Shown: positions 1,009-37,673, counted from the stretch's first letter. The stretch is 43,512 bases of DNA from a virus (IMGVR_UViG_2563366800_000009:1-43512); one strand, 5' to 3'. The notes: generated from the sequence alone by a model not told the origin. Made by a program: numbers and translations.

Positions 1009-1083
1009 GTCCTCTTAGTTAAATGGATATAACGAGCCCCTCCTAAGGGCTAATTGCAGGTTCGATTCCTGCAGGGGACACCA
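1009..1083 (+). tRNA. argW: tRNA-Arg (anticodon CCU); prophage integration site (attL side)
   Basis: 75-nt cloverleaf read by eye: acceptor GTCCTCT/AGGGGAC, anticodon loop CTCCTAA, T-arm GGTTCGATTCC, discriminator A plus CCA. Confidence 0.9.
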
Positions 1084-1199: not shown

Positions 1200-1244
1200 G
1201 GGTAAAAAGTGGATAAAATAATTTTACCCACCGGATTTTTACCC
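1200..1244 (+). promoter_or_regulatory. Repeat cluster directly upstream of intS: GGGTAAAAA (1200-1208) inverted relative to direct copies TTTTACCC (1222-1229) and TTTTTACCC (1236-1244); candidate recombination-protein binding sites or intS control region
   Basis: Repeats seen in sequence; last copy abuts the intS ATG. Confidence 0.4.
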
Positions 1245-2402
1245 ATGCTCACCGTTAAGCAGATTGAAGCAGCAAAGCCGAAAGAAAAACCATACCGCCT
1301 TCTCGATGGTAATGGCCTGTACCTTTATGTTCCTGTATCCGGGAAAAAGGTATGGCAGCTTCGCTACAAGATTGACGGTAAGGAGAAAATCCTGACCGTC
1401 GGAAAATATCCGCTTATGACTTTGCAGGAAGCAAGGGATAAGGCATGGACTGCGAGGAAAGACATCTCGGTTGGCATCGATCCGGTAAAGGCGAAAAAGG
1501 CTTCGTCTAACAACAATTCATTTAGTGCGATTTACAAGGAATGGTACGAGCACAAGAAGCAAGTCTGGTCAGTAGGCTATGCAACTGAACTTGCCAAAAT
1601 GTTTGATGACGACATTTTACCCATCATCGGCGGTCTTGAGATTCAGGATATTGAGCCGATGCAACTGCTGGAAGTAATCCGCAGATTTGAAGATCGCGGT
1701 GCAATGGAACGAGCCAATAAAGCCCGCAGAAGATGCGGCGAGGTTTTCCGTTACGCTATTGTCACCGGCAGGGCTAAATATAACCCGGCACCTGACCTTG
1801 CTGACGCCATGAAAGGATACCGCAAGAAGAACTTCCCGTTTCTTCCTGCCGACCAGATCCCGGCATTCAACAAAGCACTGGCAACATTTTCAGGAAGTAT
1901 CGTATCGCTCATTGCTACCAAAATTTTACGCTACACCGCCCTAAGAACGAAAGAGCTTCGTTCCATGCAATGGAAGAACGTCGATTTTGAAAACAGGATT
2001 ATCACCATCGACGCCAGTGTGATGAAGGGACGCAAAATTCATGTGGTCCCGATGTCAGACCAGGTGGTTGAACTTCTCACTACGCTAAGCTCCATCACTA
2101 AACCAGTATCAGAGTTTGTTTTTGCCGGGCGCAACGATAAGAAGAAGCCGATCTGCGAGAACGCGGTGCTGCTTGTGATCAAACAAATCGGCTATGAAGG
2201 TCTGGAAAGCGGTCACGGATTCAGGCATGAATTCAGCACGATTATGAACGAGCACGAATGGCCTGCTGACGCTATTGAAGTGCAACTGGCACATGCCAAC
2301 GGCGGATCTGTGCGTGGGATTTACAACCATGCTCAGTATCTCGATAAGCGCAGAGAAATGATGCAGTGGTGGGCGGATTATCTCGATGAGAGGGTGGCAT
2401 AG
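1245..2402 (+). CDS. intS: Tyrosine integrase IntS (P4-like family), 385 aa
   Basis: Protein begins MLTVKQIEAAKPKEKPYRLLDGNGLYLYVP, recognised as KplE1 IntS; ORF track extends it upstream to a GTG at 1209 but the ATG at 1245 gives the known 385-aa length; adjacent to tRNA. Confidence 0.9.
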   Translation: MLTVKQIEAAKPKEKPYRLLDGNGLYLYVPVSGKKVWQLRYKIDGKEKILTVGKYPLMTLQEARDKAWTARKDISVGIDPVKAKKASSNNNSFSAIYKEWYEHKKQVWSVGYATELAKMFDDDILPIIGGLEIQDIEPMQLLEVIRRFEDRGAMERANKARRRCGEVFRYAIVTGRAKYNPAPDLADAMKGYRKKNFPFLPADQIPAFNKALATFSGSIVSLIATKILRYTALRTKELRSMQWKNVDFENRIITIDASVMKGRKIHVVPMSDQVVELLTTLSSITKPVSEFVFAGRNDKKKPICENAVLLVIKQIGYEGLESGHGFRHEFSTIMNEHEWPADAIEVQLAHANGGSVRGIYNHAQYLDKRREMMQWWADYLDERVA

Positions 2403-5674: not shown

Positions 5675-5736
5675 GTCAATATTTCCTAATCCGATTTGTT
5701 GATACCGAAGCCCTGACTGTTCCCGCAGTTGGGGCT

Positions 5737-5910
5737 TCAACTTTTTGCTAGATTACCTTTAGAACTATCCCGCCTTAAACTATCCACTAACCGCATTACC
5801 ATCTCGGTATTTATTGAGCGACCATTTTCTTTCGCTGACTTCTCGATTGCTAACTTAACCTCTAATGGGATGCGCAAAGGGTACTTTGGTGCGTCTGACT
5901 TGACTATCAT
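5737..5910 (-). CDS. arc: Arc-like ribbon-helix-helix repressor
   Basis: [35 protein letters not shown] resembles P22 Arc; GGAGG RBS before the ATG at 5910. Confidence 0.7.
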
Positions 5911-24210: not shown

Positions 24211-24286
24211 TGGTGCTGGTTAACGGACTTGAACCGCTACCCATTCGCTTACAAGGCGACTGCTCTACCATTGGAGCTAAACCAGC
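24211..24286 (-). tRNA. Phage-encoded tRNA-Thr-like gene (anticodon UGU)
   Basis: Cloverleaf read by eye: acceptor GCTGGTT/AACCAGC, D-arm GCTC-CAATGGTA-GAGC, anticodon loop CTTGTAA, T-loop TTCAAGT, discriminator A, CCA; one anticodon-stem mismatch. Confidence 0.6.
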
Positions 24287-24291
24287 ATGTT

Positions 24292-24366
24292 TGGCGGGAC
24301 AGCGTGGACTCGAACCACGATAAGAAGGTTAACAGCCTTCCGTAATGACCTTTATACGACTGACCC
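24292..24366 (-). tRNA. Phage-encoded tRNA-Asn-like gene (anticodon GUU), possibly degenerate
   Basis: Anticodon arm GAAGG-CTGTTAA-CCTTC, T-arm CGTGG-TTCGAGT-CCACG, 3' GCCA; acceptor stem has a T-T mismatch and the D-stem is only 3 bp. Confidence 0.4.
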
Positions 24367-33516: not shown

Positions 33517-34233
33517 ATGGAAAATAAAAAATCACTGACGACAGAACAGCTCGAAGACGCTAAGCGGCTTAAGGCTTTGTATGAGTCAAAAAAGAAAGAA
33601 TTGGGAATAACCCAATACTCAATCGCTGATGAACTGGGTATCACCCAAGGAGCGGTAGGGCATTATCTTAATGGCAGAAACGCGCTAAACGTTGAGGTTG
33701 CATCTGGTTTTGCACGATTGTTGCAAGTCTCAATTGCTGATTTTAGCCAGTCAATTGCTGCCAAGGTTGCAGAACAGGCAGAAAGCCTTAAGAGCGATGC
33801 CAACGTAAGGTATGCAGGGGAATACAGAGCAGGAAAGAGGTATCCGGTGTTAAGCAGTATCCAGGCTGGCTCGTGGTGTGAAGCATGCGAACCATACACC
33901 ATTAAAGACATAGATGTTTGGCTTGAGTCTGACGCGCATATTCAAGGTAATGCGTTTTGGCTTAAAGTGGAAGGTGATTCAATGACGGCACCGGTTGGGT
34001 TAAGCATTCCAGAGGGAACATTCGTTCTTTTCGATACCGGAAGGGAGGCGATCAACGGCAGCTTGGTCATAGCAAAACTTTCTGACTCTAACGAAGCAAC
34101 ATTCAAGAAGCTGATAATCGACGGCGGAAATAAATACCTCAAGGGACTTAATCCTGCATGGCCTCTCGTGCCAATCAATGGAAACTGCAAGATTATAGGC
34201 GTTGCAATTGAGACAAAACTAAGGCTGGTTTGA
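33517..34233 (+). CDS. cI: CI repressor (HTH N-terminal domain, S24-peptidase-like C-terminal domain)
   Basis: LTTEQLEDAKRLKALYESKKKELG and C-terminal LKVEGDSMTAP...TFKKL resemble lambda CI; divergent from cro. Confidence 0.9.
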   Translation: MENKKSLTTEQLEDAKRLKALYESKKKELGITQYSIADELGITQGAVGHYLNGRNALNVEVASGFARLLQVSIADFSQSIAAKVAEQAESLKSDANVRYAGEYRAGKRYPVLSSIQAGSWCEACEPYTIKDIDVWLESDAHIQGNAFWLKVEGDSMTAPVGLSIPEGTFVLFDTGREAINGSLVIAKLSDSNEATFKKLIIDGGNKYLKGLNPAWPLVPINGNCKIIGVAIETKLRLV

Positions 34234-34250
34234 TCACGCAAGGGGCGATT

Positions 34251-34619
34251 ATGGTTGGAACCGCTATAGCAAGCTTTTTTGGGATGTTGGCAATCTCGAC
34301 AATTTACGGCTTAGCGCATGCTTTTATTGCGAAATCTCTATCAGAAAAAATAAGCCAGGCTTGGGCGCATAGATCAGCTCGTTTCATGATTCTTGTGATC
34401 ATAGCAATACAAGGGATATCTGCATTTATCCTCTATGGATCAAGCTTATACCTATTGTATCAAGGCGCGACATTTACGCCTTACACCAGTGATTACGGAA
34501 CTCTATACGATGGTAGTGAAGACATCACTGTGGCTTGGATCGTCTTTGGTTTATCTATGGCCGTGTCTGTTGTAGCAGACATCATTAAGGTAATTCTCGT
34601 CTTAACCTTCGCTGACTAA
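34251..34619 (+). CDS. Small membrane protein (about 3 TM helices) directly downstream of cI at the rexAB-equivalent position
   Basis: AAGGGG RBS before ATG 34251, 18 bp after the cI stop; hydrophobic segments. Confidence 0.6.
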   Translation: MVGTAIASFFGMLAISTIYGLAHAFIAKSLSEKISQAWAHRSARFMILVIIAIQGISAFILYGSSLYLLYQGATFTPYTSDYGTLYDGSEDITVAWIVFGLSMAVSVVADIIKVILVLTFAD

Positions 34620-34750: not shown

Positions 34751-34792
34751 AATACCTTGGGTATTTACACAATAAAATACCTACAGTATTCT
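34751..34792 (+). promoter_or_regulatory. oL/pL: operators AATACCTTGGGTATT (34751-34765) and AATACCTACAGTATT (34776-34790); -35 TTTACA (34764-34769), -10 TATTCT (34787-34792)
   Basis: Same half-sites and same 25-bp spacing as oR. Confidence 0.5.
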
Positions 34793-34986: not shown

Positions 34987-35292
34987 ATGACAGTAGTCAT
35001 TACATATCTGGCTGACGATAACGCCAGAAATCGCCGCAGAGCACGCAGACAGGCTCAACGTGAACAGGCAATGCAAGAACAGCGATTGGCACGAAAAATT
35101 GCGCTAAAGCTCTCTGGTTGCGTCAGAGCAGATAAAGCAGCATCACTCGGAAGCCTTCGCTGCAAGAAGGCAGAAGAAGTCGAGCGTAAACAGAACCGTA
35201 TTTACTACCGCAAGCCACGCAGTGAAATGGGGGTGACTTGTGTTGGTCGCCAGAAAATGAAATCAGGCAGTAAGCTACTGTATGAGGGGTGA
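34987..35292 (+). CDS. N: Antitermination protein N
   Basis: Arg-rich motif NARNRRRARRQAQ near N-terminus; C-terminal RKQNRIYYRKPRSEMGVTCVGRQKMK resembles lambda N. Confidence 0.75.
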   Translation: MTVVITYLADDNARNRRRARRQAQREQAMQEQRLARKIALKLSGCVRADKAASLGSLRCKKAEEVERKQNRIYYRKPRSEMGVTCVGRQKMKSGSKLLYEG

Positions 35293-35295
35293 GAT

Positions 35296-35484
35296 ATGCA
35301 TAAATGTCAGTTCTGTGGATACATGTTTGAATCAAATGAAATGCAACGTATTTCGTTAAACCTTATCGGTAGGCCATACAACATTTGCCTAGGATGTAGC
35401 GAGAAATACAAAAACAAAGACATGTGGGACGACAATAAAAACGATATCGACTGGAATAAAGTGCCATGTATTGATGATAGTTAA
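35296..35484 (+). CDS. Hypothetical zinc-ribbon-like small protein (62 aa)
   Basis: CQFCG...CLGC motif; GAGGGGTGAG RBS. Confidence 0.5.
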   Translation: MHKCQFCGYMFESNEMQRISLNLIGRPYNICLGCSEKYKNKDMWDDNKNDIDWNKVPCIDDS

Positions 35485-35494
35485 AAATAATTAT

Positions 35495-35567
35495 GCCGCA
35501 TAGTCGGCCTTCTTTTGGCATAAACAACAGAATAAACACTGCACTGAATTATTTGAGGTGAGATATG
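35495..35567 (+). repeat. 73-bp direct repeat, copy 1 (ends with RBS and ATG of the downstream gene)
   Basis: Identical to 36021-36093. Confidence 0.85.
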
Positions 35568-36014
35568 GAAGAACAAGCAAACAAGATTCTCGTAGAACTA
35601 CTGCAAAAAGCCAGTAATGGAATAGACGCGGCTGTTTCATTTAGCCAGGCACAGATTCCTGATGTTGTTCATCAGTTGCTGCTATGGAATATGGTTGACA
35701 GTCTGATTAAAACATTAATGGCCATTCTAACAATCCCACTGGTTTTCTGGTTTATGAAGAAGCAGTGCCAAAGAGTTGAGACAGGTAAAATCGGTGATGA
35801 AGGATATTCATGGGAGAAAGGAAATCCCAAATACAGGCCGACAATGGTTTGGGATAGCAAAGGTGATATTAATCTTCTTATCATGCCATTGGTTGTAGTT
35901 TTGACTCTGTGGGGGATTTTTATTATTGGTGTAGTAACCAATATGACTTGGTTAAAAATTTGGCTGGCCCCAAAGCTTTACCTTATCGAATATGCAGCAT
36001 CATTGGTTAAGTAA
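35565..36014 (+). CDS. Membrane protein (2 TM helices) in the pL operon at the sieB-like position; candidate exclusion protein
   Basis: 149 aa; flanked by perfect 73-bp direct repeats; AT-rich. Confidence 0.6.
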   Translation: MEEQANKILVELLQKASNGIDAAVSFSQAQIPDVVHQLLLWNMVDSLIKTLMAILTIPLVFWFMKKQCQRVETGKIGDEGYSWEKGNPKYRPTMVWDSKGDINLLIMPLVVVLTLWGIFIIGVVTNMTWLKIWLAPKLYLIEYAASLVK

Positions 36015-36020
36015 TTTCAG

Positions 36021-36093
36021 GCCGCATAGTCGGCCTTCTTTTGGCATAAACAACAGAATAAACACTGCACTGAATTATTTGAGGTGAGATATG
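36021..36093 (+). repeat. 73-bp direct repeat, copy 2
   Basis: Identical to 35495-35567. Confidence 0.85.
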
Positions 36094-36561
36094 ACAAAAT
36101 CATGGAGCGTACCTTTTCCTGAATCAGAAACTGAACATGATGGAATGCCTGTTTTCTGGAGATTCCAAGCGACAGTTGAAGAAGATGGAATCAAAATATT
36201 CGCACTTCAATATATAGCTTTTCATCAGACAGAGCATTATGCATGGTTGGTTCCTGCGCATTGGATTGTTAATTTTAAACCAGCACCAAATCAGTGGTTA
36301 CAGGAATGGAAACAAAGGAGAAATAGATATGCAATTAAGAAAGTAGCAAAAAATGCAGAAAGATCTTTTGCGTTCCCGACGAAGAAACTTGCCATTGAAA
36401 GTTTATTGCGCCGGAAGAAATACCATTTGATGAGAATCAAACAAGATTTGGCTGTTGTATCAACTCTTGTTGATGGGATGAAGAATATTGATACATCAAC
36501 ACCAGATATTGAATATAACTTTGGACACAACCAAGAAACAGAAAATTGGGTGTTTTATTAG
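36091..36561 (+). CDS. Hypothetical 156-aa protein
   Basis: Start supplied by repeat copy 2; no recognisable motif. Confidence 0.55.
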   Translation: MTKSWSVPFPESETEHDGMPVFWRFQATVEEDGIKIFALQYIAFHQTEHYAWLVPAHWIVNFKPAPNQWLQEWKQRRNRYAIKKVAKNAERSFAFPTKKLAIESLLRRKKYHLMRIKQDLAVVSTLVDGMKNIDTSTPDIEYNFGHNQETENWVFY

Positions 36562-36704
36562 TATGAATAAGCACTGTGTATTCATTCCAACGAGTGAATA
36601 CACGGAGCAATGTCGCTCGTAACTAAACAGGAGCCGACTTGTTCTGATTATTGGAAATCTTCTTTGCCCTCCGATGTGAGGGCGATTTTTTTGATGGAGG
36701 ATAT

Positions 36705-37673
36705 ATGAGTGAAGTAACAGATTTAGTTGTTATTGAAAAAGCAAATGCAATGACTGTATTTCAGTCTGCCGACCAGATTGAAGAAATCCTTCAAAAGGTT
36801 GAACGTGAAGTTATGTCCTTTGTGCCTGATATCACAACGGCAAAGGGCAGAAAGGAGATCGCTTCTCTGGCGTATAAAGTTGCGCAGACGAAAACATATC
36901 TCGATGGTCTTGGAAAAGACCTTGTTGCTGAACTGAAGGAAATTCCAAAGCTAATTGATGCCAACCGCAAGACAGTGCGTGATCGCCTTGATGAGCTGAA
37001 ATCCAAGGCACGCCAGCCTCTTACTGATTATGAGGAGGAACAGGCACGGATTAAAGCCGAAGAAGAAGCTAAGGCAGCAGCTGAAGCTCTCGCAAAGCAA
37101 ATTGAGTCTGACCATGAAATAGCTATTTTGATGGATCGCGAATTTGACCGCCAAAGAGAAGAGGCAAGACTCAAAGCGGAGCAGGAAAAGCGAGAGCATG
37201 AAGAACGCTTAAAAAGAGAAGCTGAAGAGAAAGCCAGAGCAGAAGCCGAAGCAAAGGCAAAAGCCGAAATTGAAGCAGCAGCAAGGCGAGAAGCAGAAGC
37301 TAAGGCCGCAGCGGAACGTGCAGAGCGTGAACGCATTGAAGCCGAGCAACGAGCACAGCGCGAAGCAAAAGAGGCAGCAGAACGAGCTGAAAGAGAAAAG
37401 CAGGCGGCAATTGAAGCAGAACGCCGAAAAGCACAGGAGGAGGCTGAACGAATCCGGCGCGAGGCTGAAGCAAAAGAGCAAGCCAGAATAGCAGAAGAAA
37501 AAAGAATCAAGGACGAAGAAGAGCGTAGAGCAAAGGATAAAGCTCACCGGAAAGAAGTAAATAACAAAATACTTGCTGACCTTATCAAGGTTGGCGCATC
37601 AGAAGATGTTGCTAAAAATATCATAACAGCCATCGTAAAAGGCAAAGTATTCGCAACAAAAATAACCTACTAA
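36705..37673 (+). CDS. Coiled-coil protein with long Ala/Glu/Lys/Arg-rich low-complexity region (TolA-like repeats)
   Basis: GGAGG RBS before ATG 36705; about 150 aa of EAKAKAE/AERAERE-type repeats. Confidence 0.55.
   Translation: MSEVTDLVVIEKANAMTVFQSADQIEEILQKVEREVMSFVPDITTAKGRKEIASLAYKVAQTKTYLDGLGKDLVAELKEIPKLIDANRKTVRDRLDELKSKARQPLTDYEEEQARIKAEEEAKAAAEALAKQIESDHEIAILMDREFDRQREEARLKAEQEKREHEERLKREAEEKARAEAEAKAKAEIEAAARREAEAKAAAERAERERIEAEQRAQREAKEAAERAEREKQAAIEAERRKAQEEAERIRREAEAKEQARIAEEKRIKDEEERRAKDKAHRKEVNNKILADLIKVGASEDVAKNIITAIVKGKVFATKITY

Follow-up and report, generated by a model that had tools for sequence, protein, structure and literature searches.

The open reading frame at positions 36091–36561 of the 43,512-nt viral sequence analysed here (the whole stretch, hereafter the window) is a genuine, folded and conserved protein-coding gene, and its product is, on sequence grounds, the orthologue of the proteins encoded by HK97 gene 45 and 933W L0079. 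We show below that it is an accessory, horizontally mobile cassette. The protein is not new, having stood as an unnamed ORF in HK97, H-19B and 933W for around 25 years; what we add is a wider phage family, a confidently predicted fold without a solved counterpart, the placement of the gene as a mobile cassette in the ral interval, and the expectation of early expression.

36091–36561, plus strand: coding sequence of the 156-aa HK97 gp45/933W L0079-type protein (PHROG 1636), from the ORF listing, the PHROG match and identity to named proteins

The frame spans 156 codons from an ATG start. The initial annotation called its product unrecognised, a label that no longer applies: the same protein has long been catalogued as HK97 gp45 (AAF31125), 933W L0079/ST933Wp19 (NP_049479), phi24B vb_24B_11c and PHROG 1636 (E = 2.7e-112; residues 1–156 on profile positions 1–156 of 156), and at least 1000 contigs carry its exact sequence, in every case under the name 'hypothetical' or 'prophage protein'. 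Searching with tblastn, we found a gp45-type protein in 83 phage records, including phi296 and phi315; identity is 100% in 933W, phi24B, BP-4795, Min27, Stx2 phage 86 and many Stx1a and Stx2a phages, and 99.4% in HK97 Gp45 and H-19B. Most 933W-type Shiga-toxin phages carry the gene. Among complete E. coli genomes, 598 of 5426 (around one in nine) have it, in up to four copies per genome, and the major Stx1 and Stx2 prophages are among its carriers. Relatives with 55–85% identity are encoded by Salmonella phage NX263 and in Pectobacterium, Brenneria, Cronobacter, Rosenbergiella and Symbiopectobacterium.

Orthologues from four genera have pN values of 0.18–0.27 against pS values of 0.76–0.90, with synonymous sites saturated; with pN so far below pS, the protein is clearly under purifying selection. 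An alignment of 22 sequences contains 40 invariant columns. Beyond these close homologues, a profile search of 1.8 billion representative proteins returned 87 matches at E ≤ 1e-3 in diverse phages, most of them 130–170 aa long and 18–26% identical. The wider family shares a strand-turn-strand block around an invariant Gly, an 'ETxxxxxxxP' element and a basic motif, K..K....RFAF.TK..A...L..RK..QL.HLKR. The only points in favour of an ORF that is spurious or in decay, a passenger of the conserved intergenic/sRNA block that follows it, are the mosaic nature of the region and the lack of a known function; purifying selection, 40 invariant columns across genera, 87 profile matches at E ≤ 1e-3 and a structural model with a pLDDT of 95.8 make this explanation vanishingly improbable.

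The initial annotation could name no motif in the protein, and our searches agree: Pfam, NCBIfam and PADLOC gave nothing above noise with the single protein (the best PADLOC match was a chance-level Cas1_II, E = 0.018), and searches of PDB sequences with phmmer and with the profile gave chance matches only (E > 0.1). None of the 73 aligned family members matches Pfam. All 73 match PHROG 1636 and most also match PHROGs 13631 and 25384, both unannotated; every PHROG match, for the single protein and for the 73 family members, is to a family of 'unknown function'. An AP2/integrase-arm DNA-binding domain, which the RFAF.TK..A motif had brought to mind, was rejected (hhalign probability 0.4%). We saw no domain fusions in the family. 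The gene was not found on conjugative plasmids, matches in the plasmid collection being phage-like or misassigned records only, and a location in a plasmid leading region, which would have hinted at anti-defence, was likewise not found. A full-text search of the searchable literature found no mention of the protein; the 'gp45' of the OLD preprint belongs to phage HK578 and not to HK97.

The protein had been described as soluble, basic and rich in Trp, and its composition bears this out. It contains seven Trp residues (4.5%), 21 Lys and Arg against 18 Asp and Glu, and no Cys, and has a pI of 9.07 (family median 8.9). Its highest 19-residue Kyte–Doolittle mean is 0.56, compared with 2.69 for the adjacent membrane protein, and neither a hydrophobic or transmembrane segment nor a signal peptide was found by hydropathy or in the globular AlphaFold2 model. 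Charge is polarised along the chain, with a net +12 over residues 57–130 and acidic ends. The gene has a GC content of 36.5%, against 47.8% for the window.

Structure prediction with AlphaFold2, followed by Foldseek as had been suggested with the initial annotation, gave a confident model that matches no PDB entry and resembles only uncharacterized viral proteins. An alignment of 22 close homologues yielded a pLDDT of 61 and that model was not used; adding 51 distant relatives, for 73 sequences in all, raised the pLDDT to 95.8, with a pTM of 0.83. The model shows a compact globular alpha/beta protein. Its strands lie at residues 19–30, 33–46, 50–55 and 83–86 and its short helices at 57–61 and 66–74, such that three long antiparallel strands (19–55) are followed by two short helices, a short strand (83–86), a 33-residue helix (98–130) and an ordered C-terminal tail. 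In this model the central surface is strongly basic, with conserved K84, K87, R91, R107, K109 and R115.

Against 350,542 PDB chains, Foldseek returned nothing at E ≤ 1e-3. Against predicted viral structures it returned 12 matches at that threshold, all labelled 'uncharacterized protein', from phages of Erwinia, Achromobacter, Delftia, Rhizobium, Sinorhizobium, Tenacibaculum and Cellulophaga. These relatives by fold, which include Erwinia phiEa2809 A0A0A0YXB3 and proteins of Achromobacter phiAxp-3, Delftia RG-2014, Rhizobium RHph_N38 and the Tenacibaculum and Cellulophaga phages, match with E values of 2e-7 to 5e-4 at a probability of 1.0, and belong to the same superfamily by profile (PHROGs 13631, 25384 and 28215). 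They are all unannotated, share only 12–25% identity with gp45 and lack its N-terminal SWxVPFPES extension, and the C-terminal GHNxETExW tail seen in the enterobacterial subfamily is missing from most of them. Across the PDB and the predicted viral structures, the fold thus appears to be phage-specific and absent among solved structures.

The gene had been placed in an early pL operon, between a repeat-flanked membrane gene and a coiled-coil gene, and the surrounding genes agree with that placement: cI, a pL-like promoter, N and cIII/kil lie around it, with the repeat-bracketed membrane protein directly upstream and the coiled-coil protein downstream. The order of genes is cI, N, a Cys-rich ORF, the membrane protein, the gp45-type protein, the coiled-coil protein and then cIII and kil.

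33517–34233: LexA-like cI gene
34764–34792, plus strand: pL-like promoter, TTTACA-17-TATTCT, from a consensus scan
34987–35292, plus strand: N-type antiterminator gene (PHROG 271, E = 6.9e-36; weak Pfam N_peptide match)
35296–35484, plus strand: cassette with a 62-aa Cys-rich (CxxC...CxxC) ORF, directly after N (PHROG 19863; GC 35.4%)
35565–36014, plus strand: repeat-bracketed cassette with a 149-aa membrane protein (PHROG 3054; hydropathy 2.69)
36705–37673, plus strand: coiled-coil protein gene of the Sf6 gene 33 type (PHROG 1376)

The pL-like promoter lies at the position expected of pL, is flanked by 22-nt operator-like repeats (family D3) and is the only promoter-like site from cI to the coiled-coil gene. 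For the coiled-coil gene we give ATG 36705 as the probable start, and not TTG 36651, since residue 19 of the 340-aa TTG ORF (36651–37673) is the first to align with PHROG 1376; the TTG falls inside the terminator and small-RNA block described below. The homologue of this protein in HF4s bears the annotation 'similar to phi80 Agt, Gam antitoxin', a putative assignment. Downstream of kil, the window has a gene set that differs from those of 933W (Exo/Bet/Gam) and HK97 (Erf/Abc2). Upstream of pL, a 129-aa multi-pass membrane ORF (34230–34619, plus strand; PHROG 6534, 'unknown function') overlaps the cI stop codon. In the lysogen it probably shares a transcript with cI, as rexAB does in lambda, and it is a candidate exclusion or defence gene.

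The initial annotation had the protein expressed from the second copy of a repeat. Two copies of an 88-nt direct repeat bracket the membrane-protein gene. Their overall identity is 92%, and the final 73 nt (35495–35567 and 36021–36093) are the same in both.

35480–35567, plus strand: copy 1 of the direct repeat, extending into the ATG that opens the membrane-protein gene
36006–36093, plus strand: copy 2 of the direct repeat, extending into the ATG that opens the gp45-type gene
36081–36088, plus strand: Shine–Dalgarno-like GAGGTGAG, with 6 nt from GAGG to ATG, within the shared junction TATTTGAGGTGAGATATG
36019–36036, plus strand: terminator-like hairpin in copy 2, a 6-bp stem followed by TCTTTTGG, from a terminator scan

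Each copy ends in the Shine–Dalgarno sequence GAGGTGAG and an ATG, copy 1 starting the membrane gene and copy 2 the gp45-type gene. Neither copy contains a sigma-70-like promoter by consensus scan, so the repeat provides a ribosome-binding site and not a promoter. Both copies contain a short GC hairpin followed by TCTTTTGG, which folds at −9.7 kcal/mol (z −2.1) in copy 2 and more weakly, at −6.8 kcal/mol (z −0.6), in copy 1, where it lies at 35493–35510; we regard it as only weakly terminator-like. Expression from the second repeat copy therefore holds for the initiation of translation, the ribosome-binding site and ATG lying in that copy, and fails for transcription, where the copy offers a terminator-like hairpin and no promoter. 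Transcription of the gene should instead come from pL.

The repeat is composite. In CUS-3, Gally and N7, the sequence of its first 67 nt is the membrane gene's own 3′ flank, and it also resembles the region 3′ of lambda ral; its last 18 nt or so (TATTTGAGGTGAGATATG) serve gp45 as native ribosome-binding region in HK97 and 933W, lying there directly after N and directly before gp45. A junction of the TATTTGAGGTGAGATATG type (family D2) also stands 5′ of both upstream cassettes in the window. There, N and the 62-aa ORF are linked by GAGGGGTGAGATATG, which the 3′ end of N supplies, and a junction resembling it joins N to the membrane gene in HF4s. The three cassette starts (35281–35305, 35550–35574 and 36076–36100) all carry GAGG(G/T)GAGATATG, and the three cassettes that follow N (62-aa Cys-rich, membrane and gp45-type) have GC contents of 35–39%, compared with 48% for the window. 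From the sequence, GAGG(G/T)GAGATATG looks like a recombination junction for cassette exchange, and the locus like an ordinary lambdoid mosaic recombined at short shared junctions.

We also considered whether the 88-nt repeat corresponds to the 'bsq' boundary sequences of Sf6 and CUS-3, and rejected this: the annotated bsq4 is the downstream tL2a/PreS block, and the repeat corresponds to no more than the 5′ edge of this block, fused to the ribosome-binding site of the gp45-type gene.

A link between the gp45-type gene and the membrane gene upstream, raised in the initial annotation as a matter for co-occurrence analysis, is not supported. They stand side by side in 3 of 5426 complete E. coli genomes, against 598 with a gp45-type gene; those three genomes have the pair with both repeat copies, and none of the 5426 has the full order N, Cys-rich ORF, membrane gene and gp45. 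HK97 and 933W encode gp45 but not the membrane protein; in HF4s, CUS-3 and Sf6 the membrane gene is present and gp45 is missing. The membrane-protein cassette is a module independent of the gp45-type gene. A suspected second case of co-occurrence, in Salmonella phage NX263, proved not to be homologous when checked.

Immediately after the stop codon, a block of about 130 nt (36562–36693) is near-identical to the lambda ral–ea10 gap, to the Sf6 feature 'bsq4 / tL2A' and to the sequence that follows HK97 gene 45.

36574–36605, plus strand: conserved 14-bp hairpin just past the stop codon (−22.1 kcal/mol, z −5.9), near-identical in lambda, Sf6 and HK97
36605–36693, plus strand: homologue of the lambda LPR1/PreS small RNA, 5′ end approximate, ending at tL2a, from near-identity to the lambda block

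The tL2a terminator is canonical, with a stem at 36664–36685 and then a U7 run. In lambda, LPR1/PreS is an Hfq-dependent small RNA from the ral–ea10 gap, with tL2a forming its 3′ end; processing of the form of about 88 nt gives one of about 68 nt, and the RNA activates host dnaN (bioRxiv 10.1101/2024.10.31.621285). This PreS block, for which Rfam has no family, is what the Sf6 annotation calls 'boundary sequence bsq4'. Given the near-identity of the post-stop sequence to the lambda ral–ea10 gap, the gp45-type gene occupies the interval from N to tL2a/PreS, which holds ral in lambda, Sf6 and CUS-3.

HK97, 933W and phi24B resemble the window in having the same protein, at full length and on the same strand of the same operon, with the same tL2a/PreS block downstream. 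In HK97 and 933W, however, N directly precedes gp45, whereas the window adds the 62-aa ORF, the 149-aa membrane gene and the duplicated 73–88-nt junction. In HK97, 933W and phi24B, gp45 directly follows N and the first strong terminator comes after gp45; going by the map, gp45 should be co-transcribed there with N before antitermination.

An early operon position recurs in all ten related contexts examined. In prophages of Pectobacterium, Brenneria, Marinobacterium and Pseudomaricurvus, and in three metagenome or genome-assembly contigs, the homologue lies early-left, between the repressor/replication genes and xis–int; in three of these seven non-E. coli prophage contexts (Pectobacterium, Brenneria and one metagenome contig) it is directly upstream of xis. 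These three (loci L006 6001–6477, L012 6001–6477 and L014 6001–6444) have the gp45-family gene as the last before xis/AlpA and int, not as the first after N. Frequent neighbours in other prophages are genes for orphan DNA methyltransferases, Lar, RdgC, YqaJ/RecT, SSB and HNH proteins. The virulent phages Pantoea LIET2 and Pseudomonas 8P carry a homologue in long arrays of small early genes. In Salmonella phage NX263 (L005 3983–6401), a 64%-identical homologue heads a short operon set among structural genes; further products of that operon are a ParB-like DNA-binding protein and a small protein listed as a fragment of the DNA polymerase III beta subunit. Many close relatives of the phage have no gp45-type gene. 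Lambda, CUS-3, Sf6 and HF4s lack gp45, although their early operons are otherwise similar, and we therefore consider the gene dispensable.

The idea that gp45 serves anti-defence or host takeover, advanced in the initial annotation, is plausible from its position and its accessory behaviour. Clear homology to Ral or Ea10, named there as grounds against the idea, was not found. Homology to Ral/Lar was rejected (hhalign probability 0.1% against lambda Ral, and no match to Pfam Lar_restr_allev), as was homology to the Ssb-like Ea10 (0.15%). The comparison with lambda Ral is one of setting: both genes occupy the N-to-tL2a/PreS interval of the pL operon, and both are non-essential, early and exchanged as lambdoid cassettes, but Ral has 66 aa and gp45 156 aa and the two have no sequence relationship. 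As phi296 carries both ral and a gp45-type gene, they are not simple alternatives. Lambda ea10 is, similarly, an early-left accessory gene beside the same intergenic block, and 933W has both, with its Ea10-like gene located after the gp45-type gene. Oad2 (HK446 gp27, EaE-related) is, like gp45, a small accessory protein of the modular pL operon of HK-type lambdoid phages, although of a different family; it offers a functional precedent from the lambdoid early-left region, which is reported to be an anti-defence hotspot (bioRxiv 10.64898/2026.07.10.737580). For the gp45-carrying phages phi296 and phi315, AntiDefenseFinder reported only methyltransferases, Ral and Gam (PMC12502783).

Our favoured reading, which we put forward tentatively and with somewhat less than even confidence, is that the gp45-type protein is a host-directed early accessory protein that binds nucleic acid or an acidic host factor and so counters a host barrier. 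We draw it as the best explanation because the gene is dispensable, mobile and situated in the early-left operon, because the basic surface of its product is conserved, and because Ral, Gam and Oad2 come from the same region. On this proposal, the gene would be transcribed from pL and translated from the junction GAGGTGAGATATG that it has in common with the neighbouring cassettes. It lies upstream of tL2a, the first strong terminator and the 3′ end of PreS, and expression would therefore be expected at the very start of infection or induction, with the protein among the first made after derepression and absent from the lysogen. The protein would then bind nucleic acid or an acidic host protein early, neutralizing a host barrier in a counter-defence or takeover role such as those of Ral, Gam and Oad2 of the same operon. 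Counted in favour are the basic core, the early slot of ral and the frequent methyltransferase, Lar, RdgC and RecT–YqaJ neighbours. Methyltransferase genes are common in early regions anyway, however, which weakens their weight for counter-defence, and many anti-restriction proteins are acidic DNA mimics, whereas this one is basic.

The conserved basic surface would suit DNA or RNA binding directed at the phage itself equally well. A nucleic-acid-binding factor that aids early transcription, recombination, replication or excision is the main competitor, although in our judgement the less probable one. It would account for the net +12 of the central region, the conserved Lys and Arg residues and the family motif, and gp45 is always found in the operon of recombination genes, xis and int; the adjacency to xis in three of the seven prophage contexts outside E. 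coli might reflect a role internal to the phage, as might the NX263 homologue at the head of an operon with ParB-like and clamp-like proteins. A factor of this kind sits poorly, however, with the dispensability of gp45, absent as it is from lambda, CUS-3, Sf6 and HF4s, and no single recombination system is linked to it: 933W has Exo/Bet/Gam, HK97 has Erf/Abc2 and the window has another set.

Low GC content and cassette-like mobility are also features of morons, and prophage early regions do carry exclusion genes, such as lambda sieB in the N-to-tL2a interval. We nevertheless give very little credence to a lysogen-expressed moron that protects the host, through superinfection exclusion or as a defence gene. 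The gp45-type gene lies on the pL sense strand downstream of N, has no promoter-like site of its own and should therefore be repressed in the lysogen; homologues are present in virulent phages, and PADLOC gave no match.

Extending the host-directed reading to the whole family, gp45/L0079 and its distant relatives would be the founding members of a new class of early effectors that inhibit a specific host immune or DNA/RNA-metabolism factor, a broader claim to which we assign roughly one chance in four. If it were true, carriage of gp45 by most 933W-type Stx phages would matter for their host range and induction biology. Any function established for gp45 would apply to a gene that hundreds of prophages in pathogenic E. 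coli carry.

Taken in full, the window represents a P22-like (Lederbergvirus-type) lambdoid phage genome, and it reads like a complete, circularly permuted genome and not like an integrated prophage with host flanks. A sar antisense RNA at 5676–5742 (plus strand; Rfam RF00262, 71.6 bits) is typical of the P22 immI region. A complete tRNA-Arg(CCU) gene (1009–1083, plus strand) lies just upstream of a 397-aa ORF (1209–2402, plus strand), which we presume to encode the integrase and which converges on a 650-aa ORF, probably the tailspike gene. Genes for tRNA-Thr(UGU) and tRNA-Asn(GUU) are present at 24211–24366 on the minus strand. Phage tRNA-Thr(UGU) genes are reported in a 2026 preprint to be able to counter the P2 OLD tRNase defence (bioRxiv 10.64898/2026.07.10.737580), and by analogy the tRNA-Thr(UGU) gene of the window may therefore be a counter-defence element.
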